DNA of 50,353 nt from Dehalococcoidia bacterium (GCA_040882355.1 JBBEBM010000082.1:1-50353), one strand, 5' to 3'; shown: positions 582 through 39,420, numbered from the stretch's first letter. The notes: generated by a model from the letters alone, not told the origin. A program made the numbers and translations.

Positions 582-604
582 TTCCCGATCCGCTCGTACC
601 ACTC
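582..604 (-). repeat. 23-bp perfect direct repeat of the rarA 3' end (other copy 1153..1175)
   Basis: ttcccgatccgctcgtaccactc at both sites; encodes EWYERIG. Confidence 0.9.
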
Positions 605-606
605 AA

Positions 607-664
607 CCCTCACCCCGAGCTGGCGCTCACCCCTCTCCCGCCCGGCGCGGGAGAGGGGCTTGGG
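607..664. repeat. REP-like hairpin (CCCCTCTCCCGC...GCGGGAGAGGGG)
   Basis: Inverted repeat 630..658; 18 bp cgctcacccctctcccgc shared with 1071..1088. Confidence 0.75.
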
Positions 665-1028
665 TTCCGGCTGCGAACTCCTTTCGGATCCTATTGAGCA
701 CTCCGCCGATGTCTCGTTCCACCTCATCGCTTGGAACGCGAACGATCTTGAGGCGTCGTGCCCGGAGGAAACCGTCACGTTCGCGATCGTCGCCTCGCTG
801 CCCTTGGTGAATCGGCCCATCCACTTCGACGATGAGGCGTTCTTCAACGCAGTAGAAGTCCACGACATACCGCCCTATCGGATGTTGGCGGCGGAACTTC
901 CTGCCATCCAGCGACTTACGACGCAACGCAGCCCACAGCAGCGCCTCGCTTGTCGTCGAGTCCTGCCGCAGCGCCCGAGCCAGTCCTGTCCTCGGCCGCA
1001 TGGCTCTTGCTTTCGCGTCCCGACTCAC
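627..1028 (-). CDS. DUF559 / Vsr-like endonuclease domain protein
   Basis: ARALRQDSTTSEALLWAALR..KFRRQHPIGRYVVDFYC..LIVEVDGPIH; start may be ATG at 1001. Confidence 0.9.
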   Translation of the reverse strand: MSRDAKARAMRPRTGLARALRQDSTTSEALLWAALRRKSLDGRKFRRQHPIGRYVVDFYCVEERLIVEVDGPIHQGQRGDDRERDGFLRARRLKIVRVPSDEVERDIGGVLNRIRKEFAAGTQAPLPRRAGEG

Positions 1029-1070
1029 TCGATGGCCCTTTTGATCGTTTGCGCCCTTTCCTCGATCACG

Positions 1071-1145
1071 CGCTCACCCCTCTCCCGCGCCAGGCGGGAG
1101 AGGGCCTGCCCTCGAGCGAAGCGGAGGGGCTTGGGGAGAGGGTCA
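1071..1145. repeat. REP-like hairpin abutting the rarA stop
   Basis: ccctctcccgc..gcgggagaggg then ggggcttggggagagggtca. Confidence 0.75.
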
Positions 1146-2489
1146 CTCTCCCTTCCCGATCCGCTCGTACCACTCCTTGATCTTCGCCTCGTAGCCCAGG
1201 TCGCCGGGCTCGTAATAGCGGCGCCCGGCGAGGCGATCGGGCAGGTTCTGTTGCTCGACATAATGCTCGTCGAAGTCATGGGCGTACTTGTAGCCCTTGC
1301 CGTACCCCATCGAGCGCATCAGGCCGGTGACCGCGTTGCGCAGGTGCATCGGCACCGGCTCGCCCTGTGTCTCGCGGACGTCGGCCAGGGCGCGGCTGTA
1401 GCTGGTCATCGCGCTGTTGCTCTTGGGCGCCGTCGCCAGGTACAGGGCGCACTCGGCCATCGGCAGGAAGCCCTCGGGCAGCCCGATGAAGTGCACTGCC
1501 TGCTGACACGCCGTCGCGACGACGAGCGCCTGCGGGTCGGCGAGGCCGACGTCCTCCGCCGCCAGGATCACCATCCGCCGCACGATGAAGAGCGGGTCCT
1601 CGCCCGACTCGATCATGCGCGCGAGCCAGTAGAGCGAGGCGTCGGCGTCGGAGCCGCGCACCGACTTGATGAACGCGGAGATCGTGTCGTAGTGGGCGTC
1701 GCCCGACTTGTCGTAGAGGTACGTCCGGTGCTGGAGCGCTTCCTCGACGAGCTCGCGCGTGACGTGGCGAGCGCCCTTGTCGTCGGGCGGCGCGCTCGCC
1801 ACCGACATCTCGAGTGCGTTGAGGGCGATGCGCGCGTCGCCGCCCGTCGAGTTCGCCAGCGCCTCAAGCGCGTCGTCGTCGACCTGCACCGGTTCGCCGG
1901 CCAGCCCGCGTTCGTCTTCCAGCGCCCGGCGCAGTAGCACCTCGACCTGCTCCGGCTGGAGCGCGTGCAGCGCGAAGACCCGGCAGCGCGAGAGCAGCGG
2001 CCCGATCACCTCGAACGAGGGGTTTTCCGTGGTCGCGCCGATCAGCGTGATCGTCCCGTCCTCGACGTAGGGCAGCACGGCGTCCTGCTGCGCCTTGTTG
2101 AAGCGATGGATCTCGTCGATGAACAGGATGCTGCGGGTGCCCTCCAACGCGCGCCGCTCCTTCGCCTCGGCGATCACGCGCCGCAGGTCGGCCACTCCCG
2201 CCGAGACGGCGGATACCGGCGCGAAGCGCGCCTGCGTCATGCCCGCGATGATGCGCGCCAGCGTCGTCTTGCCCGTGCCGGGGGGCCCCCAGAGGATGAT
2301 CGAAGGCAGGCTGTCCGACTCGACGAGCCGGCGTAGGATGTGCCCCTCGCCGACCAGGTGCTCCTGCCCGACGAACTCATCGAACGAGCGCGGCCGCATC
2401 CGCGCGGGCAGCGGCGCCTCGCGCTGAAGCTGCTCATCGGCCGCCTGGTCGAACATGTCGGGCCCGCGCTGCGCCTTCCTCGGGGGCAT
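1143..2489 (-). CDS. rarA: Replication-associated recombination protein A (MgsA/RarA AAA+ ATPase)
   Basis: PLPARMRP, Walker [36 protein letters not shown]. Confidence 0.97.
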
Positions 2490-16440: not shown

Positions 16441-16707
16441 ATGAAGAAGAAGATCGTAGGAGCACTGTTCGCCGTATCCCTGATGGGAGGCGCGGCGTTT
16501 GGCGGTGTCGCGCTGGCTGAGGGCGAAGGCCACACACCCGTTGTCGTCTGCCACTGGGTGCCCGCGCACGACGGCAGCTTCGTCGTCATTACGGTCGATG
16601 ACGACGGCGCCGACGGCAACGCCAACCTGGAGGCGCACGCCGGCCACGAGAATGACGTGATCAACCCGGCCAGCGGCTCGTGTGACGACGGAGGCGGCGA
16701 AGACTAG
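16441..16707 (+). CDS. Small secreted acidic His/Cys-containing protein
   Basis: GGAGG RBS; MKKK + hydrophobic + VALA signal peptide; VVCH..ITVD..AHAGH..D..C; followed by a terminator. Confidence 0.85.
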   Translation: MKKKIVGALFAVSLMGGAAFGGVALAEGEGHTPVVVCHWVPAHDGSFVVITVDDDGADGNANLEAHAGHENDVINPASGSCDDGGGED

Positions 16708-16761: not shown

Positions 16762-16821
16762 GTAGACTGCTGGGCGGCGGCGGCTTGCACCCGGCATCCG
16801 CCTATCCACGTCGCCCGTTCC

Positions 16822-16887
16822 CTAGATCAGGCTGCTTGGCAGGCCCTGGAGCACCCGCAGCACGCACATCTCGCCCATGTGGGCGTG
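16822..16887 (-). repeat. Orphan copy of the last 66 bp of the DinB-family gene (20226..20291)
   Basis: 60/66 identical by manual alignment, ungapped; HAHMGEMCVLRVLQGLPSSLI* vs ...GLKSSLI*. Confidence 0.92.
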
Positions 16888-17117
16888 GCTGCGTGTAACA
16901 TGCGGAGTGCGGGGTCGCCAGGTTCGGCCCCGCTGCTCCAGACGCGGCCTGAACGCGCGCCAGCCAATTCTGTTACAAACTCAACGCCTGCTCAACCAAC
17001 TTCGGCTGAGTTCGCGTTATCCTCTCTCATAGGAAGAGGCTCTCGCCCTTCTCGCCGCCCTCCCCGCGCGGCCATCGTTCACCCCGCTGATCAGTTTGGA
17101 GGAGGCTAGACGAAGTC

Positions 17118-18134
17118 ATGAACGCAAAGGCCATCGCCCATCGACCCGTTGCGTGGGTCATCACTGTGGCGCTGTTGCTCGCCGCCTTGGGCACGCTATT
17201 GGCGTTCGCCATGATCCCGCGAGCGGACGCACACGCGCCATCCGGCGCCATCTTCACGACGCTCGCAGACGGCAGCGAAGTGAACGAAAACCAGTTCCCA
17301 AGCAAGCCCGACGTCTACCTGGACGGAGGCCCCGGCCCCGGCGCGCCGCAGGGAGCCGCGGGCCTTGACGACGGCACGTACGTCTTCATGGTCACAAACC
17401 CGAATGGAGATGTGCTTCTCTCGACCGACCTTGGAGGTTGCCGCCAGGTGACGGTCGCCGGCGGAGTCTTCACGGGCGTCGTGCCGTTCGGCGGCTGCCA
17501 GCACGTCACGGGCAACGACACAGACCACCCGCCTGCCAAGACCGTGCAGCTCTTCCCGTTTGACGACACCCCCAACCCAGGCGGCGTGTACAAGGCGCAC
17601 ATCGTTGCGCTGGACGACTTCCTGGCCGGCTGCGCCGCGCTGGGTGCCGCCAACGGCCTGAATGTGGTGGACTGCGGCCTTGCGCCGAACAACCATCACG
17701 GCTTCGTCAGCGCCCACAGCAAGACGGACAACTTCAAGGTTGATGACCCCGCGCATGAGATCGACATTCGGTTCTTCTACGACGGCGATGGCAACGGCCG
17801 TTACAACGAGGACCACGACGAGCTACTACCCAACCTCCAGACGTCATGGACCGACACCTTGGGTGCCCGCAACATCCGCTGGTCCGACCCGGACTACCAC
17901 ACGTTCGGTCACGTGGAGGCAGCGGAGACCGGCCGCCACTCCATCAGCATCTACAACCAGGCCGGTTGCGACATCGGCCAGGTCAGCGTGACCCAGTGGG
18001 TGGGAGAGGGCGCCTCTTCCCAGGTCACAACAGACAAGAAGCTGAAGAAGGGTCCGCAGAACGTCAGCGTGACGTTCTCCAACCGCCACGAGACGATGCC
18101 TGTTACCTGGTACGTCGACGCGGCCTGCAAGTAG
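17118..18134 (+). CDS. Secreted/surface protein, Cys-containing, with SdrB/prealbumin-like C-terminal segment
   Basis: Signal peptide ..ADAH; GAIFTT..VN.N..K.DVYLDGGPG; FYDGDGNG; GGAGG RBS. Confidence 0.85.
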   Translation: MNAKAIAHRPVAWVITVALLLAALGTLLAFAMIPRADAHAPSGAIFTTLADGSEVNENQFPSKPDVYLDGGPGPGAPQGAAGLDDGTYVFMVTNPNGDVLLSTDLGGCRQVTVAGGVFTGVVPFGGCQHVTGNDTDHPPAKTVQLFPFDDTPNPGGVYKAHIVALDDFLAGCAALGAANGLNVVDCGLAPNNHHGFVSAHSKTDNFKVDDPAHEIDIRFFYDGDGNGRYNEDHDELLPNLQTSWTDTLGARNIRWSDPDYHTFGHVEAAETGRHSISIYNQAGCDIGQVSVTQWVGEGASSQVTTDKKLKKGPQNVSVTFSNRHETMPVTWYVDAACK

Positions 18135-18155
18135 TCACTAGGCAAACCGCTGGCA

Positions 18156-18191
18156 ATAAGACAGGCGCCCCAGGAGGGGCGCCTGTCTTAT
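18156..18191. terminator. Bidirectional terminator hairpin
   Basis: Perfect 16-bp stem ataagacaggcgcccc-agga-ggggcgcctgtcttat between convergent genes. Confidence 0.85.
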
Positions 18192-18233
18192 CGTTGCGCG
18201 GGGCACGGCGGTAGCGCGGAGCCGCGCTGAGCC

Positions 18234-19334
18234 TCACTCGACGAGGCGAATGAAGCTGTTGGCTGAGTCCGGATCGAACGTGCCGGCCAGCAACCCGATG
18301 TTCTGGTTCACGCGCACGAACCGCCCGATGATCTCGCAGTCGTTGCCTGTGCAGTTGTTGCCGTTGGCAAAGCCCTCCAGGAAGAAGAGCGCGAAGTCCT
18401 GGATAGTGACCGAGCAGGAGCCGTTGCATGGCCCATCGATCACCGGCACGATGAGGACGCGCAGGCTCTCGTAGCCGCCCTCCGTGAATGGGTTGCATTC
18501 GTTAGTCAGACGATAGATGCCGTCGCCGTCCTGGTCAGGAGTGCCTGTGCCATCCTCGTCGGTGAAGACTTCATCGAACTCGTTGCAGCGAGAGTCGGTG
18601 TTATCGAGTCGGTACTCGATCGCTCGCTTCGTGCCGCCGATGAGGTTGCCTGTCTGCGTATCGACCACCGATGGCCCATCGCAGTAAGTCGGGTCCGCTC
18701 CCAGGGCGCATACGGCGTTCTCCGAGCCGAACTTGACCCCGTCGCAGTACGAGTCGCTTGAGGTGCAGTTGCCGTTGCCGTTACCGTCGATGCGGATGGG
18801 GCTGGTGTTGCCGTTCTGGATGTTGCGGGCGTCGTACTTGAGGACGACTTCGCCGCCCAAGCTGACGCCGTTCATGGCAGCAGCAGTTACGGAGAGTGGG
18901 ACCACGCCGTCGCCGCCGGCTGCCGAGGTCTTGATCGCCGTGGCGGCCGTAATCACATCGGCAGAGCTGATCCCGATCAGGCGGGCGAAGGTGAAGTTGT
19001 GCTCCCGCTTGAGGGTGACGCGCACCTTCGGGTTCGGTTCGCTCCCGCTCTGAGGGATGATCTCGACGCTCTCGATCTCGGCCGCCTCAATGTTGTTCTT
19101 CGTCGCCCAGCTCTCGGCTGCGGCCGTGGCCGCGGAGCCGTCCGGCAGGTCGAACGACGCGGCGAGGGCTACGGCATCGGCGTCGTTTTGCAGGTCGCGG
19201 TGGTCAGCGGCGTAGCTGCTGAAATCGATCGCAAGCGCCGCCATGCCCCCGATGACGGCGAGCATGACAGCGATGAGGACGACCGCCTGGCCGTGTTGAT
19301 CGCGCTGGTCGCGCCGATTTTTAGTGAAGAGCAT
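18234..19334 (-). CDS. tadG: TadG-related pilus assembly protein
   Basis: G|QAVVL pilin-like cleavage site, ALAIDF..LQNDADAVALA. Confidence 0.85.
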   Translation of the reverse strand: MLFTKNRRDQRDQHGQAVVLIAVMLAVIGGMAALAIDFSSYAADHRDLQNDADAVALAASFDLPDGSAATAAAESWATKNNIEAAEIESVEIIPQSGSEPNPKVRVTLKREHNFTFARLIGISSADVITAATAIKTSAAGGDGVVPLSVTAAAMNGVSLGGEVVLKYDARNIQNGNTSPIRIDGNGNGNCTSSDSYCDGVKFGSENAVCALGADPTYCDGPSVVDTQTGNLIGGTKRAIEYRLDNTDSRCNEFDEVFTDEDGTGTPDQDGDGIYRLTNECNPFTEGGYESLRVLIVPVIDGPCNGSCSVTIQDFALFFLEGFANGNNCTGNDCEIIGRFVRVNQNIGLLAGTFDPDSANSFIRLVE

Positions 19335-19340
19335 AGCGGG

Positions 19341-19802
19341 CTACTCCAATCGCATGTCGGCCGACGTCTTCAGGTCGAGCGACTCAGGGAAAGAGCCTCC
19401 ACTGAAGAAGTCGATCATGTCGCCCAGTGGCGTGAAGAAGTCGTACTGATACGTGGCTTCGACGTGGAGCGAGCTGCCTGGATCGCAGCCGGCGTCGCAG
19501 CTCGGCGAGACCGTCATCTGCGCCTTGTCCAGCCCTTCGGCGACCGAGCAGACCCGGCCTACCACGCTGCTGTTGCCTTGTCCTTCGCATGTTGTCGCGG
19601 CGTCTCCGAGCTCGTTCCCGACGGCGCCGTAGCGCGCGCCCTCCCGCGTCGCGTTGGTGAGACTGACGTAGGAGCGAGCGCCCATCGCGAAGTCGATGAT
19701 GCCAAAGACGAGGATGATCAGGATCGGGAATACCAGGACGAACTCGACGAGACTCTGACCTCGATCTCCCTGCTTGTGTGCTTGCTTGTGAATCTGGAGC
19801 AT
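19341..19802 (-). CDS. tadE: TadE family pseudopilin
   Basis: RG|QSLVEFVLVFPILIILVFGIIDF..LTNATREGAR; start taken at MLQIHK. Confidence 0.9.
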   Translation of the reverse strand: MLQIHKQAHKQGDRGQSLVEFVLVFPILIILVFGIIDFAMGARSYVSLTNATREGARYGAVGNELGDAATTCEGQGNSSVVGRVCSVAEGLDKAQMTVSPSCDAGCDPGSSLHVEATYQYDFFTPLGDMIDFFSGGSFPESLDLKTSADMRLE

Positions 19803-19824
19803 GTGAGTACCTCTGTGTTTGCGC

Positions 19825-20055
19825 TCATCGACTGTCAGACGCAGTTGCTGCCTGTTCAGTGCTGGATGGCGCATCCGAGCGTGGGAACGTCCGCCATGCT
19901 GGACTGAATTCACTGTCCGCTTCTTGCGGTTGAATCCGTTCCATAATGGCGTCTCGCGAGTCCAGCGCCTCGCGCCAGCGCGCGCGCCTGGCCCGAAGCT
20001 CAGCCTCGAGCCGTGCGACCAGGCTTGGCGTTTTCTGCTTCCTTCTAGTGAGCAT
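19825..20055 (-). CDS. Small hypothetical protein
   Basis: 76 aa upstream of tadE with a G-rich RBS-like sequence; no motif recognised. Confidence 0.4.
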   Translation of the reverse strand: MLTRRKQKTPSLVARLEAELRARRARWREALDSRDAIMERIQPQEADSEFSPAWRTFPRSDAPSSTEQAATASDSR

Positions 20056-20225
20056 TGGGTCCCCCCTGGGAGGATGATGGAGTACTAGTCTGTATCCGAA
20101 CGCCGCGAGACAGCAGACGTTACGGATACGGGCAGGGACGTGGATGGGGAGTGAGATGGAGATGTGAGGAGTGCGCTATCGCCAGGGCGCACGGGAATCG
20201 ACCGCCGCCGTTTCGCGTCCGTTGA

Positions 20226-20756
20226 CTAGATCAGGCTGCTCTTTAGGCCCTGGAGCACGCGCAGCACACACATCTCGCCCATGTGGGCGTGCCCGTGCGT
20301 CAGCACGATGTTGTTCAGCGCCTGGCGCGCCTTCATCTCCGGCAGCGGCTTCACGACGACCGCGCGCTCGAGCGAGTCATCTTCGGCCGACGAAAGGAAG
20401 GCGTCCGTCGCTTGCCAGACGGCGTTCTGGTACTCCAGCCACTGATCGATGGCCGGCAGGCGCAGCGCCTGCGCGTCGGCGGTGGTCACGCCCGTACCCT
20501 GCGAGATGCGGTCGAGGGCGAAGCGCTCGAAGTAGCCGCCGTCGATCCAGATCGTCGGCTTGCGGTCCTGCAGGATGAACTGCACCACGTTGTCCTCGGT
20601 ACGCACGTAGTGCCAGAGCGTAAAGCCGATGGTGTTCGCGGTCGAGCCCGGCGGCGCCCAGTGGAGCTGCTCCGGCGTGAGGTCGCGCACCGCCTGGTCG
20701 ATCATGTTGTGCTGGTTGCGCATCGATTCGCGCAATACCTGGGCAACGGTGGTCAT
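20226..20756 (-). CDS. DinB family protein
   Basis: LTPEQLHW..NTIGFTLWH..ED..W; HGHAHMGE. Confidence 0.9.
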   Translation of the reverse strand: MTTVAQVLRESMRNQHNMIDQAVRDLTPEQLHWAPPGSTANTIGFTLWHYVRTEDNVVQFILQDRKPTIWIDGGYFERFALDRISQGTGVTTADAQALRLPAIDQWLEYQNAVWQATDAFLSSAEDDSLERAVVVKPLPEMKARQALNNIVLTHGHAHMGEMCVLRVLQGLKSSLI

Positions 20757-28125: not shown

Positions 28126-28178
28126 GGTCCACCCCTTTCGGCGACACAGCGACAGACTCGTTTCTCCGCTCGATTGTT

Positions 28179-28207
28179 AGTTTATCGACACGCGCCCGGC
28201 TTGGCAA
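28179..28207 (-). promoter_or_regulatory. Sigma70-like promoter of erpA
   Basis: TTGCCA-N17-TAAACT on the minus strand. Confidence 0.65.
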
Positions 28208-28213
28208 GGCCCG

Positions 28214-28870: not shown

Positions 28871-28933
28871 GCTCGATTCAGTCTAGGCTCGCTCCGAACG
28901 AGCTGTCAAGCTAATCATGCTATTTATGCTTTT

Positions 28934-29821: not shown

Positions 29822-29946
29822 GCCGCTCGGAGTATATCGCCCGGGAGCCGGGGCTCCTGCTGCGGAGGCCCTCGAATTGACACGAACGCCAAGCAACAGG
29901 CACTATCAAGTCTGTAGCTCAATCTGCGGGGGAGGTTTCGCGAGAC

Positions 29947-32900
29947 TTGATTTGTACAAGCTGCGGTCGTGAGAACCGCGCCGGCGCGCGCTTCTGCTCA
30001 GGATGCGGGGGCGAGCTGGCGCAGGCCTGCGCGGGCTGCGGTCAGCCATTGGCGCAGGGAGGCCAGTTCTGCGACTCATGCGGCCAGCCGGTAGGCCAGC
30101 CTGACGCCGCTCAGGCGGCGACCCCAACGCCGGCGCCGGCGCCCGCGCTGCCGGCGTCGTTCGCCTCCGGCCGCTACCAGGTGCAGCGCTTCCTTGGCGA
30201 GGGCGGCAAGAAGCGCGTCTACCTCGCGCACGACACGCGCCTCGATCGCGATGTGGCCGTCGCAGTGATCAAGACGGAGGGCCTGGACGAAGCCGGCGTG
30301 AAGCGCGTCCAGCGCGAGGCCCAGGCGATGGGCCGTCTCGGCGACCACACGAATATCGTCACCGTGCACGACATCGGCGACGATGGCGGCCAGCCTTACA
30401 TCGTGAGCCAGCACATGGGGGGCGGCGACCTGGAACGGCTACTTGCTAACGCAAAGGAGCATCGACTCTCGATCGCCAAAGCGATCGAGATCTCGGAGCA
30501 GGTGTGTGCTGCGCTCGAACACGCCCATAGCCACGCGGTCATCCATCGCGACCTGAAGCCGGGCAACATCTGGCTCGACGCCGATGGCTCGGCCAAGCTG
30601 GGCGACTTCGGACTGGCCGTCGCCATCGACCGCTCGCGCCTAACGCGCGAAGGCATGATGGTCGGGACGACATCATACATGCCGCCCGAGCAGGCGGTGG
30701 GTGGCGAGGTGACGCCCAGGTCGGACCTGTACTCACTGGGCTGCGCCCTCTACGAGATGGTCACCGGCCGGCCGCCGTTCCTGGGCGACGACTCCGTGGC
30801 GGTGATTTCACAGCACATCAATACAGCGCCGGTCGCGCCTTCCTGGCACAATCCTGAGGTACCGACGGCGCTAGACCTGCTCATCACACAGCTCCTTGCG
30901 AAAGTTCCGGCCGAGCGCCCACAGGATGCCAGGACCGTTGCGGATGAGCTGCGCCGGATCCGGGAGCGGAGCACGGTCGAGTCTGTCGTTGAAACACGGT
31001 CTCCGGCGGCAAACCTTCGTGGTCTCGCCTGGGGCCAGTTCGTCGGTCGGCGGCAGGAGATGGAGCAGCTCAAGTCCGCGCTGGAGAGCGCACTGTCGGG
31101 CCAAGGCACCTTGGCCATGCTCGCCGGTGAGCCCGGGATCGGCAAGACAAGGCTGGCTGAGGAGTTCGCCGTCTACGCCAGCCTGCGCGGCGCGCAGGTG
31201 CTGACGGGGAGGTGCTTCGAAGGCGAAGTCACGTTGCCCTACCGCCCGTTCATCGAGGCGTTTCGGCAGTACATCCGCTCGCGGCCGGACGCGGAGCTGC
31301 GCGGCGAGCTGGGCGACGGCGCGCCTGAGGTCGCGAAGCTCGTCTCCGAGGTGCACCAACGCTTCCCCGACATTCCTGAAGCACAGCCGCTTGAGGCTGA
31401 GGCGGAGCGCTTGCGCCTCTACGAAAGCGTGAGCACGTTCATTCGCAACGCGGCGACGGCGAACCCGATCGTCTTGTTTCTCGACGACATTCATTGGGCG
31501 GACAAGCCATCGCTGCTGCTCATGCGCTATCTCGCGCGCGCAATCGCCGGCCAGCGCGTGCTGATCCTCGGCGCCTACCGCGACGTCGAGCTGGACCGCA
31601 CGCACCCGCTGTCGGAAGTGATGGCGACGCTGCGACGCGAGACGCCGTACCAGCGCGTGCTTCTGCGCGGGCTGGCCGAAGAAGATGTCCTCGGGCTGCT
31701 AGAAACCCAGGAATCGTCCGAGGAGACGGCCGCCGGACGCCGGGCGCTATCGGCGGCGCTCTACAAGGAGACCGAAGGCAACCCGTTCTTCATCCGCGAG
31801 GTGCTCAGCCTTCTGGTTGAGGAAGGGAAGCTGGTGCACGAGAACGGCCACTGGGTGGCGCGCGTCTCGTCCGTCTCAGAGATGGGGATCCCTGAAGGCG
31901 TTCGGGAAGTCGTCGGGAAGCGTCTGTCTCGCGTGAGCGAAAGCTGCAACCGCATGCTCACGATGGCTTCGACGATGACCGGCGGCTTTACGTGGGAGGA
32001 GTTGAAGGCGATCGCGGATGTCGGCGAGGCGGAGCTGGTTGAGCTGCTGGAGGAGGCTCTCGCTACGCAGTTGATCCTGGAGCGCAAGGGCGACCAGGTC
32101 GGCACGTACGACTTCACCCACGCGCTGATCCGTCAGACGCTCTACGGCGAGCTGAGCACGCCGCGACGCGTGATCTTGCACCGCCAGATCGGTAATGCGT
32201 TGGAGGCGTTCTACGGATCGAACGTCGATGCGCACCTGTCCGAGCTGGCCCACCACTTCTACCAGGCAGCGCCAGGCGGCGACGTCGACAAAGCGATCGA
32301 CTACGCTACACGCGCGGGCGATCGCGCGGTTGAACAGCTCGCCTACGAGGAGGCTTCGGCGCACTATGAGCTCGCGCTCCAGGCGCTCGACCTCACTGAC
32401 ACCGCCGGCGAACGCCAGCGCTACGAGCTGCTCATGCCGCTCGGGGGAGCCTATTACCGCTCCGATCTCCCGGAGAAGGCGGTACCGACGCTGGAGCAGG
32501 CCGTGCAGTTGGCGATACGCCTGGGCGACGCGCATCTGCAGGGTACGGCAGCCCTGGCATACCACCTTGCCGTGCAGCGCGGCCCGCTGGCGTTCACGGC
32601 GGTCGCGGTGCCCGTTCTTGAGCTAACACTGGAAGCGTGCGGCAGCGAGCCGACCGGACTCCGGGCGAGGCTGCTCGCCGCTCTGTCTGAGGCCCTCGAG
32701 ACGCCGGGTCACATCGAAGCGCAGCGTGAGCGGCGCCTCGCTATCGCGCACGAAGCCAAGGACGTTGCGGAGCTTGCGGGTGACGGCAACGCAATGGTGA
32801 GCGCCCTCCGTGCCCTCCATGGGGCGATGGAAGGACCGGAAAACACAGAGGAGCGCCTCGCTGTCTCCAGGGAGCTGATCGCTGTTGCAGAAGGTTTCGG

Positions 32901-34416
32901 CAGTCGCGTCGACGCCGTCTGGTCTCGCCTCTTTCTCATTGGTGATCTGGCCCAGCTTGGTGAGATGGACGCGGTGAAACGAGAAATCGCAACCACGTGC
33001 GATCTCGCCGACCAGTTGAGAGAACCAGCATTCAGCGGCTGGCGCCCCCTATGGGACGCGATGCTGTTGATGCGAGAGGGCCGCTACGAGGAGGCCGAGC
33101 GACGGGTCCTGGAGGTCGGTCCGATTGCGCAGCGCACACAACATCCAGGCTGGATCGGCACGTTCTCGGCGCAGTTCTTCGCGATCCGCTGGGCGCAGGG
33201 CCGGATTGGCGAGATCGAGCAGGTCGTCCTTCAGCGCCTGGAGGAGATGCCCGACCTGCGCGCGTGGCAGGCGGCGCTGGTAATGGTCTATCTAGACGCG
33301 GATCGGCCTGACCGCGCGCGCGAGTGGTTCGATCGCCTCGCCGCTGCTGACTTCGCCGACATCCCGAAGGACCCGCAGTGGATCGTCACTCTCATGCTCG
33401 CAGCTTACGCCGCGAGGCGGCTCGGCGATGCCCCCCGCGCAGCGAAGATCTACGAGATCCTCCAGCCGTACGCTCAACGTCAGGTCACGGTCGGCTTCGC
33501 CTTCCTCTGCCAGGGCTCTGTCTCGCTCAGCCTGGGTCAGCTGGCCGCGACTATGGGCCGCTGGGAAGACGCGGAACGCCACTTCGAGGAAGCGCTTTCG
33601 TTCAACGAGCGCACCGGCACCCCTCCGTGGCTAGCCGAAGCCCGCTTCTACTATGCCGGAATGCTGCACGAGCGTGCCGGGCCCGGCGATGACGAGAAGG
33701 CCGTCGCGCTGGTGAACCAGGCGCTCGCCGCCTTCGAGGACATGGGCATGGCGAAATATGTCGAGCGGGCGCTCGCCCTGAAGCTGGACCTCCAGGGCAT
33801 CGCGGGATACGACGTCAACACCTCGATCGACACGGTCGCCGTCGTGATCAATGCGGAGCGTCCCGACCTCCGCTCCCATGCCGCGCCGGACGGCACCGTG
33901 ACCCTGCTCTTCACCGATATCGAAGGCTCCACGTCGCTCAACGAACGCCTCGGCGACCAGCGCTGGATGGACATCCTGCGCGTCCACCACGCGATCGTGC
34001 GCGACCAGATCGCCGCCCACGGCGGCTTCGAGGTGAAGAGCCAGGGCGACGGCTTCATGGTCGCGTTCGGGAGCGCGCGCCGCGCGCTCGAGTGCGCGAT
34101 TGCTGTTCAGCGGGCGGTCTCGTCACTGGGCGAGAAGGCGGAAGAGCCGTACCGCCTGCGCGTGGGCCTCCACACGGGAGAAGCGATCCGGGAGGCCGAC
34201 GACTTCTACGGCCGGCACGTGAACCTCGCGGCACGAATTGCGGGCCAGGCGCGCGGAGACGAGATCCTCGTCTCATCGCTGCTGAAGGAGCTGACAGACA
34301 GCGCCGGCGAGTTCGAGTTTGACGAGGGGCGGGAGGTGACGCTCAAGGGCATCTCCGGTACGCAGCGTGTATATGGAGTGCGCTGGGGGAACGAGGCGGC
34401 AGGCTCACGGTCCTGA
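29947..34416 (+). CDS. Double Zn-ribbon + Ser/Thr kinase + STAND (AAA_16) ATPase + TPR-like region + class III nucleotide cyclase
   Basis: 4x CxxC; HRDLKPGN, DFG; FVGR, GEPGIGKT, LDDIHWAD, GNPFF; FTDIEGST, KSQGDG, VNLAARI. Confidence 0.92.
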   Translation: MICTSCGRENRAGARFCSGCGGELAQACAGCGQPLAQGGQFCDSCGQPVGQPDAAQAATPTPAPAPALPASFASGRYQVQRFLGEGGKKRVYLAHDTRLDRDVAVAVIKTEGLDEAGVKRVQREAQAMGRLGDHTNIVTVHDIGDDGGQPYIVSQHMGGGDLERLLANAKEHRLSIAKAIEISEQVCAALEHAHSHAVIHRDLKPGNIWLDADGSAKLGDFGLAVAIDRSRLTREGMMVGTTSYMPPEQAVGGEVTPRSDLYSLGCALYEMVTGRPPFLGDDSVAVISQHINTAPVAPSWHNPEVPTALDLLITQLLAKVPAERPQDARTVADELRRIRERSTVESVVETRSPAANLRGLAWGQFVGRRQEMEQLKSALESALSGQGTLAMLAGEPGIGKTRLAEEFAVYASLRGAQVLTGRCFEGEVTLPYRPFIEAFRQYIRSRPDAELRGELGDGAPEVAKLVSEVHQRFPDIPEAQPLEAEAERLRLYESVSTFIRNAATANPIVLFLDDIHWADKPSLLLMRYLARAIAGQRVLILGAYRDVELDRTHPLSEVMATLRRETPYQRVLLRGLAEEDVLGLLETQESSEETAAGRRALSAALYKETEGNPFFIREVLSLLVEEGKLVHENGHWVARVSSVSEMGIPEGVREVVGKRLSRVSESCNRMLTMASTMTGGFTWEELKAIADVGEAELVELLEEALATQLILERKGDQVGTYDFTHALIRQTLYGELSTPRRVILHRQIGNALEAFYGSNVDAHLSELAHHFYQAAPGGDVDKAIDYATRAGDRAVEQLAYEEASAHYELALQALDLTDTAGERQRYELLMPLGGAYYRSDLPEKAVPTLEQAVQLAIRLGDAHLQGTAALAYHLAVQRGPLAFTAVAVPVLELTLEACGSEPTGLRARLLAALSEALETPGHIEAQRERRLAIAHEAKDVAELAGDGNAMVSALRALHGAMEGPENTEERLAVSRELIAVAEGFGSRVDAVWSRLFLIGDLAQLGEMDAVKREIATTCDLADQLREPAFSGWRPLWDAMLLMREGRYEEAERRVLEVGPIAQRTQHPGWIGTFSAQFFAIRWAQGRIGEIEQVVLQRLEEMPDLRAWQAALVMVYLDADRPDRAREWFDRLAAADFADIPKDPQWIVTLMLAAYAARRLGDAPRAAKIYEILQPYAQRQVTVGFAFLCQGSVSLSLGQLAATMGRWEDAERHFEEALSFNERTGTPPWLAEARFYYAGMLHERAGPGDDEKAVALVNQALAAFEDMGMAKYVERALALKLDLQGIAGYDVNTSIDTVAVVINAERPDLRSHAAPDGTVTLLFTDIEGSTSLNERLGDQRWMDILRVHHAIVRDQIAAHGGFEVKSQGDGFMVAFGSARRALECAIAVQRAVSSLGEKAEEPYRLRVGLHTGEAIREADDFYGRHVNLAARIAGQARGDEILVSSLLKELTDSAGEFEFDEGREVTLKGISGTQRVYGVRWGNEAAGSRS

Positions 34417-34507
34417 AGAGCCAGCGGAGCCAGCATACATCCCCGCCCCAACAAGCTTCGTTGACAGCGTTTTGAGGCCGGTGCTACGGTGCAAGCGAGA
34501 GCCAGTC

Positions 34508-35704
34508 ATGCCCGACCGACGCGTCTACCTCGATCACGCCGCCACGACGCCCACCGACCCGCGGGTCGTGGAGGCGATGCTGCCCTACCTGACGGATGTC
34601 TGGGGCAACCCATCGAGCATCTATTACGAGGCACGCGAGGCGCGCAAGGGCCTCGACACGGCCCGGCGCAGCGTCGCTGAGGTGCTCGGCGCGCGTCCGA
34701 CGGAGATCGTCTTCACCAGCGGCGGCACAGAGAGCGATAACCTGGCGCTGCGCGGCGTCGCGTACGGCGCCCGGCGGCGTGGCAACCACATCATCACTAC
34801 CGCCATCGAGCATCACGCCGTCCTCCACACGGCCGAGCGGCTCGAGCAGGAGGGCTTTCGCGTCACCTACCTCCCCGTCGACCGCGAGGGCTTCGTCGAT
34901 CTCGAAGCGCTCGAGCGCGCGCTCGACGACGAGACGGTGCTCGTCTCGGTCATGTACGCCAACAACGAGGTCGGGACGGCCGAGCCCATCACCGAGGTGG
35001 TGCGCATCGTCAAGGCGCGCGACCCGCACATCACCGTCCACACCGACGCCGTCCAGGCCGCGGGCTCGCTCGACCTGAACGTCGACCGGCTCGGCGTCGA
35101 TCTGCTCTCGCTCGCCGGTCACAAGATCTACGGCCCGAAGGGCGTCGGGGCGCTCTACGTGCGCACGCGCACGCCGTTCCTGCCGCAGCAGTTGGGCGGT
35201 TCCCAGGAGAAGAACCGGCGCGCGGGCACGGAGAGCGTCGCGAACGCGGCCGGCATGGCGGCTGCGCTCCGCCTCGCCGAAGAGGCGCGCCCTGAGCGCT
35301 CCGCGCACTCCCGCGCCCTGCGCGACCGCCTGCTCGACGAGCTGCCGCGCCGCGTGCCCGGAGCGCGCGTCACCGGGCCGACCGACCCCGAACGCCGCCT
35401 GCCGAACAACGCCTCGTTCTGCTTCGAGCGAGTCGAAGGGGAGGCGGTGCTGCTCCAGCTCGACCTGAACGGCGTCAGCGCCAGCAGCGGCTCGGCCTGT
35501 ACGACCGCTTCGCTCGAACCGTCCCACGTCTTGCTGGCGATGGGCATCTCGCACGAGCTCGCGCGCGGCAGCCTGCGCCTCACCCTGGGCAAGGGCAACA
35601 CGGCGGACGAGGTCGAGTTCGCCCTCGGGGCGATCGCCACCGCCGTCGAGAAGCTGCGCGCGCTCGCGCCGCGACCCGGCCGCGCGCCGACGCCGGCCCG
35701 CTAG
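34508..35704 (+). CDS. iscS: Cysteine desulfurase (IscS/NifS group I)
   Basis: YLDHAATT, FTSGGTESDN, HTDAVQ, GHKIYGPKG, SSGSACT. Confidence 0.95.
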   Translation: MPDRRVYLDHAATTPTDPRVVEAMLPYLTDVWGNPSSIYYEAREARKGLDTARRSVAEVLGARPTEIVFTSGGTESDNLALRGVAYGARRRGNHIITTAIEHHAVLHTAERLEQEGFRVTYLPVDREGFVDLEALERALDDETVLVSVMYANNEVGTAEPITEVVRIVKARDPHITVHTDAVQAAGSLDLNVDRLGVDLLSLAGHKIYGPKGVGALYVRTRTPFLPQQLGGSQEKNRRAGTESVANAAGMAAALRLAEEARPERSAHSRALRDRLLDELPRRVPGARVTGPTDPERRLPNNASFCFERVEGEAVLLQLDLNGVSASSGSACTTASLEPSHVLLAMGISHELARGSLRLTLGKGNTADEVEFALGAIATAVEKLRALAPRPGRAPTPAR

Positions 35705-35788
35705 GGCGGCTGGCCGGCCAGACAGTAGAGGTTCTCTAGCCCCGCGAAGTGCCCCGGCAGCGGCACCGGGCACTGCGCCGAAACGGAC
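35701..35788 (-). repeat. Orphan copy of the 3' end of glycosyltransferase gene 36607..39420
   Basis: 62/75 identical, ungapped, vs 36607..36681; QCPVPLPGHFAGLENLYCLAGQPP* vs QCPVPVPEHFAGIENLYCLRGSPP*. Confidence 0.9.
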
Positions 35789-35906
35789 GGCCTGGTACGC
35801 GATCTCTCGGGACGCGGCACCCGGCAGTGGCGCTCCGCGCACGCGCGATATACTGTAGTGCTCACAGCCGAGCGAAAGCACAGAGGGTGTCCTGAGGTCA
35901 TCAAGG

Positions 35907-36185
35907 TTGCTTCCCAAGGAACAGCGTCGTTACTCGGAGCGGATCGTTCAGGACCCGGCGATACTGGCCGGTAAGCCGGTGGTCCGCGGAACGCGCATTC
36001 CCGTCGGGCTCGTTCTCGAATACCTCGCGAACAACCCGAGCTTCGATGACCTCTTCGCCGACTATCCCCGGCTGACGATGGACGACGTAAGGGCCTGTCT
36101 CGGCTTCGCGCAGGCACTTGTTGAACGAGCGGGCAACCGGAAAGCCGGCGCTAAGCGTCTGCCCTCCCGGGCCGCTCGCTCGTGA
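35907..36185 (+). CDS. DUF433 antitoxin-like protein
   Basis: RIVQDPAILAGKPVVRGTRIPV..DYPRLT..DVRACL. Confidence 0.92.
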   Translation: MLPKEQRRYSERIVQDPAILAGKPVVRGTRIPVGLVLEYLANNPSFDDLFADYPRLTMDDVRACLGFAQALVERAGNRKAGAKRLPSRAARS

Positions 36186-36550
36186 GGTTCTTGCTCGATG
36201 AGAGCGCTGAATACCGTTTGGCGGCATTTCTCAAACGGGAAGGACACGACGTTACTGCCATCGCCCACGACTATCCGGCGGCGTTAGCGGACAGCGACGT
36301 CCTGGCGATAGCCACCTCCCAGCAGCGGATCGTCATCACGAATGACCCGGACTTCGGCGAGCTGGTATTCCGCCACAGTCAGTCGCACAACGGCGTGATC
36401 CTCCTGCGGTTGCCGGCGGGCGACACCGCCGCGAAGATCGAGGCGCTGCGGAAGGCGCTGGCGTCGCATGCCGCCGACCTCGGCCACTTCCTTGTAGTTG
36501 ATCGCAGGGGCGTACGGGTCGCGCGCACCCCACCCCGGCGTCAGACGTGA
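36182..36550 (+). CDS. DUF5615 PIN-like toxin
   Basis: MRFLLDE..GHDV..DSDVL..ITNDPDFGEL..GVILLRL; GTGA overlap with DUF433. Confidence 0.92.
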   Translation: MRFLLDESAEYRLAAFLKREGHDVTAIAHDYPAALADSDVLAIATSQQRIVITNDPDFGELVFRHSQSHNGVILLRLPAGDTAAKIEALRKALASHAADLGHFLVVDRRGVRVARTPPRRQT

Positions 36551-36606
36551 CAGCCCTGGCTGCTGCCAACAACCCCCACGTCCCGGGCTGGCGTGCTTTT
36601 GCTCCG

Positions 36607-39420
36607 CTAGGGCGGCGAGCCCCGCAAGCAGTAAAGGTTCTCGATCCCCGCGAAGTGCTCCGGTACCGGCACCGGGCACTGTGTCGCGTCGGACTCGCCT
36701 TCCAGCGCGGCGTAGACGATAAACGTCTGTCCGTCCGACTGGTACCAGTACGTGCCATCGTTCAGCGGGTCCTTTGGGATCGGCGTGAGCATCTCCTGCA
36801 CGTCGCAGGCCGCGTCGAAGGGGTAGACGCAGAAGCTCTGCACGCCGTCCGTGCTCGGGTACTCGTCGTGCTCTTCGTAGTACTCCTGCAGCGCGCCGGC
36901 CATCGTGAACAGGTCGCGGCGCCGCTGCTCGTCGCGCTCAGCGCCCGCCTCCGCGTCGCTCGTCGGCGACGGCGCCGGCGTCGGCTCTTCGCCGTCGACA
37001 TCGTCATCGGGCGGCGGTTCGTCGTCGCCAGGCGTCCGTTCGTATCTCGTCAGTCCGGGCGACGTGTAGGTCGCCCGGTAGACCTCCCGGCCGGGGTACA
37101 GCGCCAGCACGTCCGCGAGTCGCTCCGGTATGTCGCGCGCGTAGACGATGTTGCCGTCCAGGTCCGGCGAGTTCTTCCAGAAGACCGTGCCGTAGCACTG
37201 CCAGTGCGGGCATGCCTCGACAAGGACCAGCGCGTTCTTCAGATCGGCATCGTCGACGAGCTTGAGCAGCCGGTCGTCCGCATCGTTGAACCCCTTGAGG
37301 GCGATGGCGCGGTCCGGCACGAAGTCCGCCACCCAGCCGTCCTGCTTGCCGAAGAGCCACCCGGCGAGTGCCGCGCCCACGAACACCAGCACGATGCTGT
37401 AGACGACCCCCGTTCCCACCCAGCGCGCCACGACGTCCGCCGGGCGACGCCCGAGCACCGCCCGCTGAACGAACGCCGCGCTCGCGCCCAGCACCTCGGC
37501 CGCGCGGTCGGCGCCGCGCGCCGTCAGCAGCATCAGGAAGGGCACCGCCTCGTACCAGTAGCGCGGGCCGTGCATGACGCCGTTGCCCTCGAACAGCGAG
37601 TACGCGCCTAAGACGAAGACCGCGCAGACCAGGAAGAACCAGTCCCAGAGCTTGCGCGTCCCCAGCATGAACGGCAGCAGCACGAACATCATCCCGATGT
37701 ATAGGGGCCACCCGTTGAAGACGAGCAGCAGGAAGGTGAGCTGCGTCTGCTCGTTCTGGATTCCGGCGTTTACGGTGTGCCTCCCGCCGAAGCCCACCGC
37801 CTGATCGAGGTCGCCGCCGACCTGGTAACCGCTGCTGAACGCGTCGCCCGTCGAACCGTCGTTGTAGATCCAGTACGCGACCAGCATCAGCAGCCCGCCG
37901 GCGATGAACCCCGCAAGCATTCGAACTTGCGCCAGGCGGTCCTCCTCCGGCAGCAGCCGGCTGAGCAAGAAGGCGCCGAACGGCAGCACCAGCGCCATCG
38001 CCGTCAGCGGGCGCGTGTTGAACAGCAGGCCGAAGAAGAGCCCGGCGGCGATCGCATAGGGGAGCCTCTTCTTGTCCATCAGCGATACGAAGAACAGCGA
38101 GAGCAAGACGTAGAATGCGCCCGTGTTGTGCGACATGAAGTTGCTCGCCGTCATGAGGAAGAACGGCGATGCGGCCAGCAGCAGCGCCGCCAGCAGGGCG
38201 GTGCGCGTGTTGTAGATGCGCCGCCCCAGCGCGAAGATCAGCAGCACGCAGCCGCCGCCGACCAGCGGCGGGATTAGCCAGATCGCTCCCAGGCGCACCC
38301 CGACCGCCAGCAACAGCGAATGGCCGAAGGGGTAGACGCTCGCCCAGTGGTCGCCGGACGTGATGATCAGCGGCGGGTAGAAGAACTCGAAGGCGTCCTG
38401 GACGGGGGCAGGGTCGGCGGAGAACCGCCCCGCCGCGATCAGCTTCGCCTGGAAGATGTACGAGACCTCGTCCGGCACGTGCGGCATGTGCGAACCGTAC
38501 GAGTAGTTCAAGTAGAGGGTGATCACGAACGCGCAGATGGCGATCGCTCCCGCGACGAACCACGCCATCTGCCTCGGGAACCACTCGTCGACCGGCAGCG
38601 AGCGCGGCCAGGGCACGAGGAGCAGACCGAGCACCACGAGGAAGCCCGCCGCCAGCATCAGCAGCGCCAGCGGGTAGACGCGCAGCACCATCTCCACCAT
38701 CGACCTGACAGTCTCCGTCTTGCTCGCCAGGAAGACGTCGCCCGGCACGCTGGCCGTCGCCTGTCCGTCTGCGATCAGCGCGATCAGGTTGTCGTAGTGA
38801 CGGAACGGGCGGAAGGTGTAGACGACGCCCTCGTTCGCGTCCTCCGCGCGCACCATGATCGCGCCGCCGTTGATGTTCTTGAAGCGCACGTCGACGGCGT
38901 AGTTCGTCCAGTCCTCGACCACCTGCAGCGTGCCCGAGCCCGTCACGCCGAGCACGCCGCCGTCGCTCTCGAACGCGCCCGCGACGTTCGTCCACTCCTC
39001 GGACGGGCCGTGCGAGAAGTCGTCCTCGAACAGCACCTCGTCGGTGTCGAGATCGGTGATGCGCACCGAGTCGATGCCGCGGGGCTTGGGCAGGCTCGGC
39101 GGCTGTGACGTGTCCAGCAGGCTGACGATCACGCCGCCCTCGGCAGGCGCTTCGTAGTTCGCGGAGGCCCGCAGTTGGCCGTCGCCGTACGCGACGAACG
39201 AGGCGCCACGCGCCTCCAGTCGGATGTGCGTCGTCTGGCCGCCCCGGCTCCAGAACCACCCTGCCAGCAGCACCAGGTTCACGATGACGAAGACGCTGCC
39301 GGCGAGCGCGATGCGGCCGCGGTTCGCCCGGGCCCGCGATGCCAGCCAGCGCAGCCGGCGGCTCGTCTTCACGGGCAGCCCGATGCGACGGTCCCTGGCA
39401 ACCATTCCTCGATCACTCAT
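36607..39420 (-). CDS. GT-C membrane glycosyltransferase with N-terminal beta-sandwich-like domain and C-terminal pilin/GspG-like domain
   Basis: PHVPDEVSYIFQAK, multi-TM, GPRYWYE; tail RDEQRRRDL..ALQEYY...YP...IPKDP..YWY.SDG..F..YAALE. Confidence 0.85.
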   Translation of the reverse strand: MSDRGMVARDRRIGLPVKTSRRLRWLASRARANRGRIALAGSVFVIVNLVLLAGWFWSRGGQTTHIRLEARGASFVAYGDGQLRASANYEAPAEGGVIVSLLDTSQPPSLPKPRGIDSVRITDLDTDEVLFEDDFSHGPSEEWTNVAGAFESDGGVLGVTGSGTLQVVEDWTNYAVDVRFKNINGGAIMVRAEDANEGVVYTFRPFRHYDNLIALIADGQATASVPGDVFLASKTETVRSMVEMVLRVYPLALLMLAAGFLVVLGLLLVPWPRSLPVDEWFPRQMAWFVAGAIAICAFVITLYLNYSYGSHMPHVPDEVSYIFQAKLIAAGRFSADPAPVQDAFEFFYPPLIITSGDHWASVYPFGHSLLLAVGVRLGAIWLIPPLVGGGCVLLIFALGRRIYNTRTALLAALLLAASPFFLMTASNFMSHNTGAFYVLLSLFFVSLMDKKRLPYAIAAGLFFGLLFNTRPLTAMALVLPFGAFLLSRLLPEEDRLAQVRMLAGFIAGGLLMLVAYWIYNDGSTGDAFSSGYQVGGDLDQAVGFGGRHTVNAGIQNEQTQLTFLLLVFNGWPLYIGMMFVLLPFMLGTRKLWDWFFLVCAVFVLGAYSLFEGNGVMHGPRYWYEAVPFLMLLTARGADRAAEVLGASAAFVQRAVLGRRPADVVARWVGTGVVYSIVLVFVGAALAGWLFGKQDGWVADFVPDRAIALKGFNDADDRLLKLVDDADLKNALVLVEACPHWQCYGTVFWKNSPDLDGNIVYARDIPERLADVLALYPGREVYRATYTSPGLTRYERTPGDDEPPPDDDVDGEEPTPAPSPTSDAEAGAERDEQRRRDLFTMAGALQEYYEEHDEYPSTDGVQSFCVYPFDAACDVQEMLTPIPKDPLNDGTYWYQSDGQTFIVYAALEGESDATQCPVPVPEHFAGIENLYCLRGSPP

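Follow-up and report, generated by a model that had tools for sequence, protein, structure and literature searches.

Integrases such as those of e14 and phage 21 at icd insert at the 3' end of a coding gene, which is then completed by a copy carried on attP. Here we describe duplicated gene ends in a 50,353-nucleotide (nt) stretch of DNA from a Dehalococcoidia bacterium (GCA_040882355.1, JBBEBM010000082.1:1-50353), which as a whole is called the window. At three of its genes, encoding RarA/MgsA, a DinB-family protein and a PMT_2 glycosyltransferase (GT), the order is an intact gene, its stop codon, cargo and then a second copy of the gene's tail, the orphan, at the former tail position. We show that loci of this type are scars left where DNA was inserted within the final 23-226 nt of a gene. 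The layout is like that left by the icd integrases, where the gene end is duplicated, the element's copy sits on the gene, the resident copy is orphaned and silent-site differences are possible. Unlike those elements, the cassettes described here have no integrase in or beside them, lie at ~20 unrelated targets in a single genome of 3.3 Mb and carry cargo down to 55 nt.

The closest described systems are the rhs, contact-dependent inhibition (CDI) and type VI secretion system (T6SS) loci. For rhs a circular intermediate has been proposed, by which the tip is shunted downstream and not replaced (Jackson et al. 2009, PMC2935791), and for T6SS effector-immunity arrays a linear variant with one anchor, homology-facilitated illegitimate recombination (Kirchberger et al. 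2017, PMC5361080). As portrayed in these accounts, an intact gene is followed by direct-orientation 3' fragments that start with a shared stretch of variable length, and strings of such fragments form without a dedicated recombinase. The loci described here share both properties, with strings at uvrC, at rarA, on contig C4 of the source genome and at rarA of a related genome (G007). In the rhs, CDI and T6SS accounts the tips are unrelated toxin domains with immunity genes, which diversify the toxin, whereas the tails here are alleles that are 80-98% identical. Unlike in the rhs account, the targets are ordinary genes (rarA, uvrC, alaS, rnhB, ku, the DinB-family and glycosyltransferase genes), and the variable part is the cargo after the stop codon. 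We read most cases as C-terminal displacement of the rhs/T6SS kind, on ordinary genes. The arrangement described in an earlier note on this DNA, made from the sequence alone, is not new in kind, as C-terminal displacement by a circle or by homology-facilitated illegitimate recombination is already proposed in these two accounts. Both tail displacement and long target duplication are known kinds of event.

Insertion with long target duplication was reportedly noted by Nobusato and colleagues in 2000. It has been described case by case for restriction-modification genes, with repeats matching at 44/46 and 417/423 positions (Furuta et al. 2010, PMC2853133). As far as that description goes, our loci resemble it in having inserts of less than 20 kb, no mobility gene and flanking repeats of more than 30 bp, of which the empty site has a single copy. 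In some cases the repeat overlaps a gene 3' end, and the rarA island, with its nuclease gene and methylase fragment, is a further likeness. The differences from the described cases are the varied cargo, the 80-98% identity of the repeats with a synonymous bias, and the clustering at stop codons genome-wide.

A Campbell-type single crossover gives exactly this layout, with the duplicated gene end on either side of the insert. In E. coli, 56/60 lacZ clones selected as one-ended illegitimate recombinants were single circle crossovers, with 109-950 bp from the end of lacZ present twice (Amarir-Bouhram et al. 2011, PMC3240628). Unlike the reported system, a laboratory plasmid with identical homology, the homology here is short and diverged, and we infer the substrates, the circularisation and the transfer. 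In the literature searched, the housekeeping-gene targets, the frequency and strict polarity of such scars across the genome and the association of a sub-class with triplex repeats and DUF559 appear to be new.

Most bacterial accessory genes sit between conserved genes without an integrase or transposase nearby, and their arrival is usually inferred, not seen. Orphan tails, as physical scars, pinpoint the site of entry with single-base precision and carry allele information. Being frequent and strictly polar, they make "homologous recombination in flanking core genes" countable in terms of the genes used, the homology length and the cargo, and they let one ask whether triplex repeats and DUF559 nucleases seed such events.

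The DinB-family and glycosyltransferase loci

The source genome (G000) is a metagenome bin of 82 contigs, 3.33 Mb and 67% GC, with N-runs present, and the window is its contig C82. It was compared with 40 related genomes, none of the same genus, so that all comparisons are at family level; the nearest relatives share ~80% nucleotide identity in conserved genes. The features of the DinB locus are as follows.

16441..16707, plus: small secreted-protein gene, the ancestral convergent neighbour of the DinB gene, which it adjoins in G001
16812..16896, minus: orphan DinB tail, ending ..LQGLPSSLI*
16897..20215: cargo 2, 3.3 kb, GC 0.63
17118..18134, plus: unnamed open reading frame (ORF) of 338 amino acids (aa), cargo 2
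18234..19334, minus: Tad-domain ORF, cargo 2
19341..19913, minus: TadE ORF, cargo 2
20216..20300, minus: active copy of the DinB tail repeat, including the stop codon and 10 nt past it
20226..20756, minus: DinB_2/mycothiol-transferase-like gene, 176 aa, target 2 (Pfam DinB_2 9e-14; NCBIfam MST below cut-off)

The two copies of the DinB repeat (16812-16896 and 20216-20300) are identical at 72/85 nt, and at 60/66 nt in the coding part. Both tails end in ...SSLI*, and the orphan is in frame to TAG. Empty sites with a single tail are found in G001, G007 and G009, which represent other genera and not strains. A LuxR-type gene lies 239 nt from the DinB gene in G007; in G001 the order is LuxR, small secreted-protein gene and DinB, with the last two matches 375 nt apart; and the gap in G009 is 114 nt. 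The corresponding query segments in G000 are 3.7-3.9 kb apart, and tblastn detects none of the three cargo-2 proteins at the DinB sites of these three genomes. Because the sites of G001, G007 and G009 are without cargo, cargo 2 is an insertion, and the orphan occupies the tail position of the relatives' empty sites. The site in G010 is ambiguous, as the contig ends inside DinB. The ending ..LQGLPSSLI* of the orphan is shared with three relatives, and its P is present in 8/8 relatives; the active tail has K for that P, with the codons CTA AAG, via four adjacent base changes.

The glycosyltransferase locus has the same layout next to a convergent gene.

34367..35704, plus: cysteine desulfurase gene, convergent with the GT gene
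35698..35788, minus: orphan GT tail, whose stop codon overlaps that of the desulfurase gene
35789..36603: cargo 3, 815 nt, GC 0.65
35907..36185, plus: DUF433 gene, cargo 3 (Pfam 7e-21)
36182..36550, plus: DUF5615/PIN-like gene, cargo 3 (Pfam 1e-22)
36604..36694, minus: active copy of the GT tail repeat
36607..39420, minus: PMT_2 glycosyltransferase gene, 937 aa, target 3 (Pfam PMT_2 3e-11)

Here the repeat (35698-35788 and 36604-36694) is ungapped, with 73/91 nt identical overall and 70/88 in the coding part. Both tails are in frame to TAG, the active one ending in ...QCPVPVPEHFAGIENLYCLRGSPP and the orphan in ...QCPVPLPGHFAGLENLYCLAGQPP. The empty site in G007 has the desulfurase and GT genes directly convergent, with a single tail, and the boundary between these two genes is variable, with different genes in other relatives. 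In a scan of one metagenome collection, the nearest relatives of the GT protein have at most 62% protein identity, and the best one ends at a contig end. Self-BLAST E values of 1e-18 and 7e-15 exclude chance for the two long repeat pairs of the window.

These findings agree with the earlier note, which had given the DinB copy as 66 bp with 6 mismatches and the GT copy as ungapped, in frame and ending at the stop codon. The cargo is likewise as it had described: a DUF559 gene at rarA, the 338-aa ORF with the Tad and TadE ORFs at DinB, and the DUF433/DUF5615 pair at GT. Its statement that no cassette encodes a recombinase also stands, with no match to a recombinase or transposase family in 41 window ORFs or in 63 cargo ORFs (≥75 aa) and 17 target genes elsewhere in the genome. 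The five Phage_integrase matches of the genome all lie outside every cargo.

To check the assembly, public contigs from four runs (X1-X4) of one study, assembled run by run, were placed on window positions 16750-36740; the source sample may be among them. A 14,471-nt contig of X1, with an even depth of ~16x, covers 27463-36740 and beyond with 0 differences, so that desulfurase gene, orphan, cargo and active GT tail are all on one piece. Two other X1 contigs, 16750-18183 and 18176-21628, meet inside cargo 2, where continuity depends on how the bin itself was assembled. At least one of the four joints is covered, with 0 differences, in each of X2, X3 and X4. Joints skipping either cassette have no support in the contigs of the four runs, which cannot show rare forms; those listed from the contigs have sides of 20-25 nt and look like other organisms.

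Tail scars across the genome

The whole genome was compared with itself by blastn, using 2657 genes from our own simple codon-usage caller. We collected local direct repeats of 30-300 nt, no more than 15 kb apart, with one copy mostly genic and the other mostly non-genic, which gave 74 pairs. In 22 of these the genic copy lies at the stop codon with its partner downstream, and in 0/74 is the partner of such a copy upstream; the other types are 7 head/upstream pairs (the mirror arrangement), 9 head/downstream and 36 mid-gene. The tail/downstream class exceeds its 5.5% expectation (binomial p 4e-11), and its 22:0 polarity gives p 5e-7 in a sign test. The 22 pairs represent 21 loci, and removing C24, a 100-N scaffold gap artefact, and C11, with a repeat of 30 nt, leaves 19 credible ones. 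The rarA 23-mer is below the screen length and counts as one additional locus. The density of tail scars is ~6 per Mb. The expectation in the earlier note that three cases in one contig imply many in the genome is thus borne out.

The targets include uvrC, alaS, RNase HII, Ku, an ATP-grasp ligase subunit, a PEP-utilising enzyme, a transketolase-like gene, a CapD-like dehydratase, an ABC-2 permease and a DUF2961 gene. The cargo ranges from 55 nt to 3.3 kb, with a GC content mostly of 0.58-0.68. Beyond the window the recognisable cargo consists of a MerR-DUF433 protein, a SnoaL protein, an ABC1 kinase, a cyclase and two TIR-domain proteins, and the rest are unknowns. The TIR-domain cargos (C55:7627-8823 and C30:12774-14096) match candidate anti-phage defence families (PDC-S35, TIR effector), and defence-like singletons seem common as cargo. 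In a larger case on C13 the repeat is 359 nt and the cargo is a trehalose-phosphate synthase/phosphatase gene.

At uvrC (C42:37300-39100) two small cassettes with two orphans form an array downstream of the gene. Immediately before each orphan stands the same ~250-nt terminal part of a small gene. With the tail included, the shared segment has 88.7% identity over 291 nt, and the two cargos are unrelated in their 5' halves. The cassette therefore passes on, as part of itself, the joint between cargo end and tail start. Both cassettes end in a homologous antitoxin-like small gene, one copy of which is apparently frameshifted, and the orphans stop with TGA versus TAG in the active copy.

In the mirror class the opening 50-145 nt of a gene are present a second time upstream. 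It holds 7 pairs, or 5 without the two that flank gaps on C45 (C40:17474, C60:3461, C60:40217, C62:31811, C79:21260).

The rarA island and triplex-like repeats

The rarA locus lies at the start of the window and has the following features.

1..66, minus: start of an APH-like phosphotransferase gene, which continues into contig C68
64..606, minus: junk ORF made of the orphan tail, a truncated N6_N4 DNA methylase piece and a weak integrase-like stretch of 29 aa
582..604, minus: inner rarA orphan, 23 nt, 100% identical, followed by a decayed hairpin
607..660: second hairpin copy, whose G-rich end ..GGGGTGAGGGTT abuts the inner orphan
627..1028, minus: DUF559 (Vsr-like endonuclease) gene, cargo 1 (Pfam DUF559 9e-33; NCBIfam DUF559 below cut-off)
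1054..1107: hairpin element, triplex/BoxC-like, just 3' of the rarA stop codon (CCCTCTCCC, loop, GGGAGAGGG, G-rich tail)
1143..2489, minus: rarA/MgsA gene, 448 aa, target 1 (Pfam MgsA_C 4e-70, AAA_assoc_2, AAA)
1153..1175, minus: active rarA tail segment, coding for EWYERIG, identical to 582-604

The identical 23-bp copy reported in the earlier note is present (582-604 = 1153-1175); it is exactly 23 nt long, with a mismatch on either side, and the 23-mer occurs three times in 3.33 Mb. The two hairpin copies (607-660 and 1054-1107), an 80% identical direct repeat, bracket the DUF559 gene. Positions 1-55 of the window equal the last 55 nt of contig C68, which carries an outer rarA orphan (C68:62859-62965) that holds tail, stop codon and hairpin, is 91% identical to window 1070-1175 and lies ~2.4 kb from the active tail; the next gene encodes a hydrolase. 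Given this overlap and the outer orphan on C68, the island measures ~2.4 kb and comprises the DUF559 gene, the inner orphan with its decayed hairpin, methylase and integrase-like debris and the APH-like gene. The methylase piece in 64..606 matches N6_N4_Mtase at 2e-11 over profile positions 23-94 of 221, and the integrase-like stretch (window 64-333) matches Phage_integrase with an E value of 0.0025 and 18 bits, below the family cut-off.

Copies of the rarA tail recur in four other genera (G002, G006, G007 and G009). The codon at which the orphan begins differs per genus, and the copy in G006, of 45 nt, lies 2.5 kb downstream. A DUF559 gene is found beside rarA also in G002, G007 and G010, and G007 has a tandem 1.19-kb unit and three rarA tail copies. 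In G000 and G007 the orphan core matches the rarA tail of the same genome at every position (23/23 and 29/29 nt). The G-rich end of the element directly abuts the orphan at both G000 orphans (..GGGGTGAGGGTT), in G002, in G007 (twice) and in G009.

Intrastrand triplex, BoxC or PIT repeats (TMECO) have neighbourhoods that are unusually variable between strains (Holder et al. 2015, PMC4666352). Like the repeats of that account, the hairpin family of the rarA locus has a three-block motif and is intergenic (29 of its 31 members in the genome), and here the motif brackets the DUF559 gene at rarA. The blocks CCCTCNCCC .. GGGNGAGGG .. GGGNGAGGG are present at rarA, C4, C42:86256 and C43:90459; C4 has two relics, in tandem units. 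The second spacer is 11-14 nt long, unlike the 3 nt of the consensus with which we compared it (CCCTCNCCC N3-6 GGGNGAGGG N3 GGGNGAGGG; PMC4666352). A triplex-repeat tail precedes the orphan in 4/22 tail pairs versus a background of 0.9% (p 5e-5). Gene-tail duplication at the G-rich repeat end was not found in the TMECO account of that paper, and the only papers retrieved for DUF559 together with BoxC were unrelated ones on "BoxCar".

From these motifs we infer that rarA and three small-cargo loci elsewhere probably form a sub-class tied to triplex/BoxC-like repeats and a DUF559 nuclease cassette, in which the orphan is invariably adjoined by the G-rich end of a repeat. For these loci, import and a local event at the repeat are equally likely. 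The first duplication may arise where a polymerase halts and switches template, or where DUF559, a nuclease that may act in cis, cuts at the repeat. The view in the earlier note that the three window loci are of one kind has to be given up, as rarA is an array of DUF559 and triplex repeats with a hairpin end at the orphan, and recurs in four other genera with different junction points. A single joint motif for all loci was rejected, the motif being present in only 4/22 pairs and missing from the DinB and GT joints. A transfer RNA (tRNA) or transfer-messenger RNA (tmRNA) as the true target at the window start was also rejected; there is no tRNA, and the tmRNA on C68 is ~7 kb away.

A second DUF559 gene (C9:23106-23294, 71% DNA identity to that of the window) lies beside a hairpin of the same family, downstream of the stop codon of another gene; DUF559-plus-hairpin units are therefore found at more than one gene end. 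Two more families of perfect palindromes are dispersed in the genome, for example at C18:27432-27486 and in the flanks of C34:24929-25011 and C57:15192; one is of 18 nt with 13 copies and one of 21 nt with 21 copies, where ~0 are expected. Several lie just past gene stops or orphans. Window 1-146 matches G004 at 93% (at a contig start), G007 at 90% and G008 at 97% over 68 nt. These identities far exceed the ~80% typical between genera, and the bin contig breaks there with the 55-nt overlap. The segment may, to judge from these matches, be recently shared mobile sequence at the start of the APH-like gene.

Allelic tails and the mode of insertion

The comparison of substitutions between the two tails, which the earlier note had suggested, used the 13 ungapped pairs, gapped pairs being excluded. 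Pooled, these differ at 60.5 of 281 synonymous and 42.5 of 787 non-synonymous sites, which gives a dN/dS of 0.22 with dS about 0.25, and the 103 differences are distributed 23/21/59 over codon positions 1/2/3. If the orphan had drifted neutrally a ratio of ~0.55 would be expected, and the synonymous share is higher than that (p 8e-5, or 0.004 with a 1.25-fold third-position mutability). Orphan GC3 is 0.81-1.00, and GC-to-AT and AT-to-GC differences number 36 versus 38. The stop is kept in 15/15 orphans aligned through it, with a different stop codon in 5 (alignments read by eye), and two gapped pairs have 3-nt gaps. The youngest pairs are 96-98% identical (C35, C30, C57), the two long window pairs 80-88%. 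We conclude from these substitution patterns that many orphans were working gene ends while most of the differences arose, and that the set is mixed in age. Relatives were uninformative as to which copy is ancestral: the DinB orphan fits 8/8 relatives, AlaRS and the PEP-utilising enzyme are mixed, and the GT tails of the relatives are too diverged to be judged.

For the cargo-bearing loci, including DinB and GT, we put the chances at about even that tail and cargo entered together from a related genome by homology. The incoming molecule would carry the 3' end of the gene plus the downstream genes of that genome and would find the resident gene through homology, without a recombinase of its own. 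Most simply, it would circularise and undergo one RecA-type, Campbell-type crossover inside the tail, which would attach tail and cargo to the gene and shunt the other tail copy downstream as the orphan. A repeat-flanked cassette could then be released as a circle and insert again at that gene in a different strain, giving arrays. In a linear variant, entry would use one homologous anchor and one illegitimate joint. The copies would run to the stop codon, with the partner always downstream, because only tail-completing insertions survive selection. Selection may also account for the shortness of the repeats, since long ones would delete the cargo again. The conserved uvrC joint is as a circle of tail plus cargo would predict, unlike random staggered breaks.

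Several points weigh against entry by homology. Frame-breaking gaps occur in at least 4 orphans (C43:90459, C59, C42:86256 and C4), and the dN/dS of ~0.4 for GT, C1 and C17 is as expected of a duplicate that arose in situ and whose orphan is neutral. In AlaRS, the majority of relatives agree with the active copy at 2 informative positions and with the orphan at 1; in the PEP-utilising enzyme, an R of the active copy (G in the orphan) is shared by 6/8 relatives, and a P of the orphan by only the closest one. Neither a donor arrangement nor a same-species empty site was found among the 40 relatives and the one metagenome scan, nor a circle junction or excision joint in the contigs, which cannot show rare forms. 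RecA would work poorly on a crossover confined to 60-90 nt of 80-88% identity. The mirror head class, although rarer, is possibly undercounted, start-codon calls being crude. Finally, the gene caller and BLAST thresholds are self-made, and the census covers one genome. The homology-assisted tail replacement put forward in the earlier note is supported in part: the layout class, the lack of a recombinase, the empty sites and the allele-like tails speak for it. The three loci are of more than one kind, however, and the evidence on which copy is the import is mixed in these family-level relatives. The search for empty sites that the note had proposed succeeded at DinB and GT.

The main rival is insertion in situ with long target duplication, in which a staggered break or template switch is filled in and 23-226 nt are copied on either side of captured DNA, for example by Ku/LigD end joining or, in the triplex class, by a replication stall at the repeat with restart upstream. 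We regard it as possible, though somewhat unlikely, for the set as a whole. The copies would be born identical, after which the orphan would drift and the active copy would be subject to selection and allelic exchange. The phenomenon is known, with mobility-gene-free inserts and repeats of 30-420 bp, some over gene 3' ends (PMC2853133), and triplex repeats have been reported at sites of variable gene context (PMC4666352). This process fits the youngest pairs (C35, C30, C57) and the triplex-repeat sub-class, where the repeat end sits at the orphan in 4/22 pairs and at rarA of G002, G007 (twice) and G009. The frameshifted orphans, the rarA cores that are identical to each genome's own tail, the tandem units at C4 and in G007 and the Ku encoded by the genome agree with it as well. 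It does not predict a pooled dN/dS as far below the neutral-orphan value as 0.22, nor orphans that have lost no GC, with a stop kept in all 15 that were aligned through it. The family-wide residue at DinB is in the orphan and not in the active copy, and the uvrC cassettes share a junction behind different 5' halves, which random staggered cuts would not produce.

Tests contradict three other readings, namely decayed integrase islands, decayed paralogues and assembly error. Islands of a tyrosine or serine recombinase that brought the gene 3' end on attP, or satellites moved in trans, would leave attL, island and attR in the observed order, and the identical 23-nt core at rarA, the reuse of its tail in five genera, the integrase-like stretch and truncated methylase beside the inner orphan and the arrays at uvrC and rarA suit such elements. 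They are nevertheless improbable: none of the ~20 cargos has a recombinase, as many specificities as unrelated targets would be needed, cargos are as small as 55-220 nt, the rarA junction positions differ between genera, and the integrase-like match does not reach the family cut-off. That the orphans are the last codons of a second, full downstream copy lost by deletion is very improbable. Tandem paralogues with shared tails do exist in the genome (for example C29:70307/71599 and C56), as does a small ORF upstream of its own gene that looks like a paralogue relic (C19:28497), and GT paralogues cluster near the GT locus. For DinB this origin is largely refuted by the three relatives with a single gene and no cargo. 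Random deletion would not always spare the tail, and always downstream (22 versus 0); moreover, homology stops abruptly at the 5' edge of the orphan, with no protein similarity further upstream, and the divergence (dS about 0.25) is allele-like, not paralogue-like. Scarcely credible is the joining of two strains' alleles by the assembler or scaffolder. The bin is fragmented into 82 contigs with N-runs, some repeats flank gaps (C24:4694, C45, C46, C62:65829), and the public contigs break inside cargo 2 near 18180. All retained loci are free of N-runs, however, the junctions are reproduced with 0 differences by contigs from four runs, a single contig spanning the whole GT structure, and a graph assembler needs reads across the non-homologous joint of cargo and orphan. 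The rarA layout is also present in four other genomes.

Entry by homology could also be extended to a recombinase-free, homology-addressed cassette system with any gene end as its attachment site, in which triplex-repeat/DUF559 cassettes would create new tail duplications; we consider this doubtful. The last codons of a core gene plus cargo (toxin-antitoxin-like pairs, TIR proteins, nucleases) would loop out between tail copies, travel between strains and re-enter by a single crossover, building arrays that are integron-like without an integrase. Template and variable repeats of the diversity-generating retroelement (DGR) type were rejected, as the mismatches are of all types and there is no reverse transcriptase.

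Repeats flanking N-runs, probably scaffolding artefacts, occur at C24:4594-4693, C45:15268-15277, C46:9535-9634 and C62:65965-66064, the pairs on C46 and C62 being of the mid-gene type, and any repeat census of this bin must filter them. For annotation, relics and spurious ORFs holding orphan tails should not be called genes, and automatic miscalling is likely. In the window, the ORF 64-606 (minus), which holds the rarA orphan tail, has no family match beyond the debris, and a long ORF at 35701-36117 (minus), which holds the GT orphan tail, is without a family match; one such ORF is antisense to a real gene.

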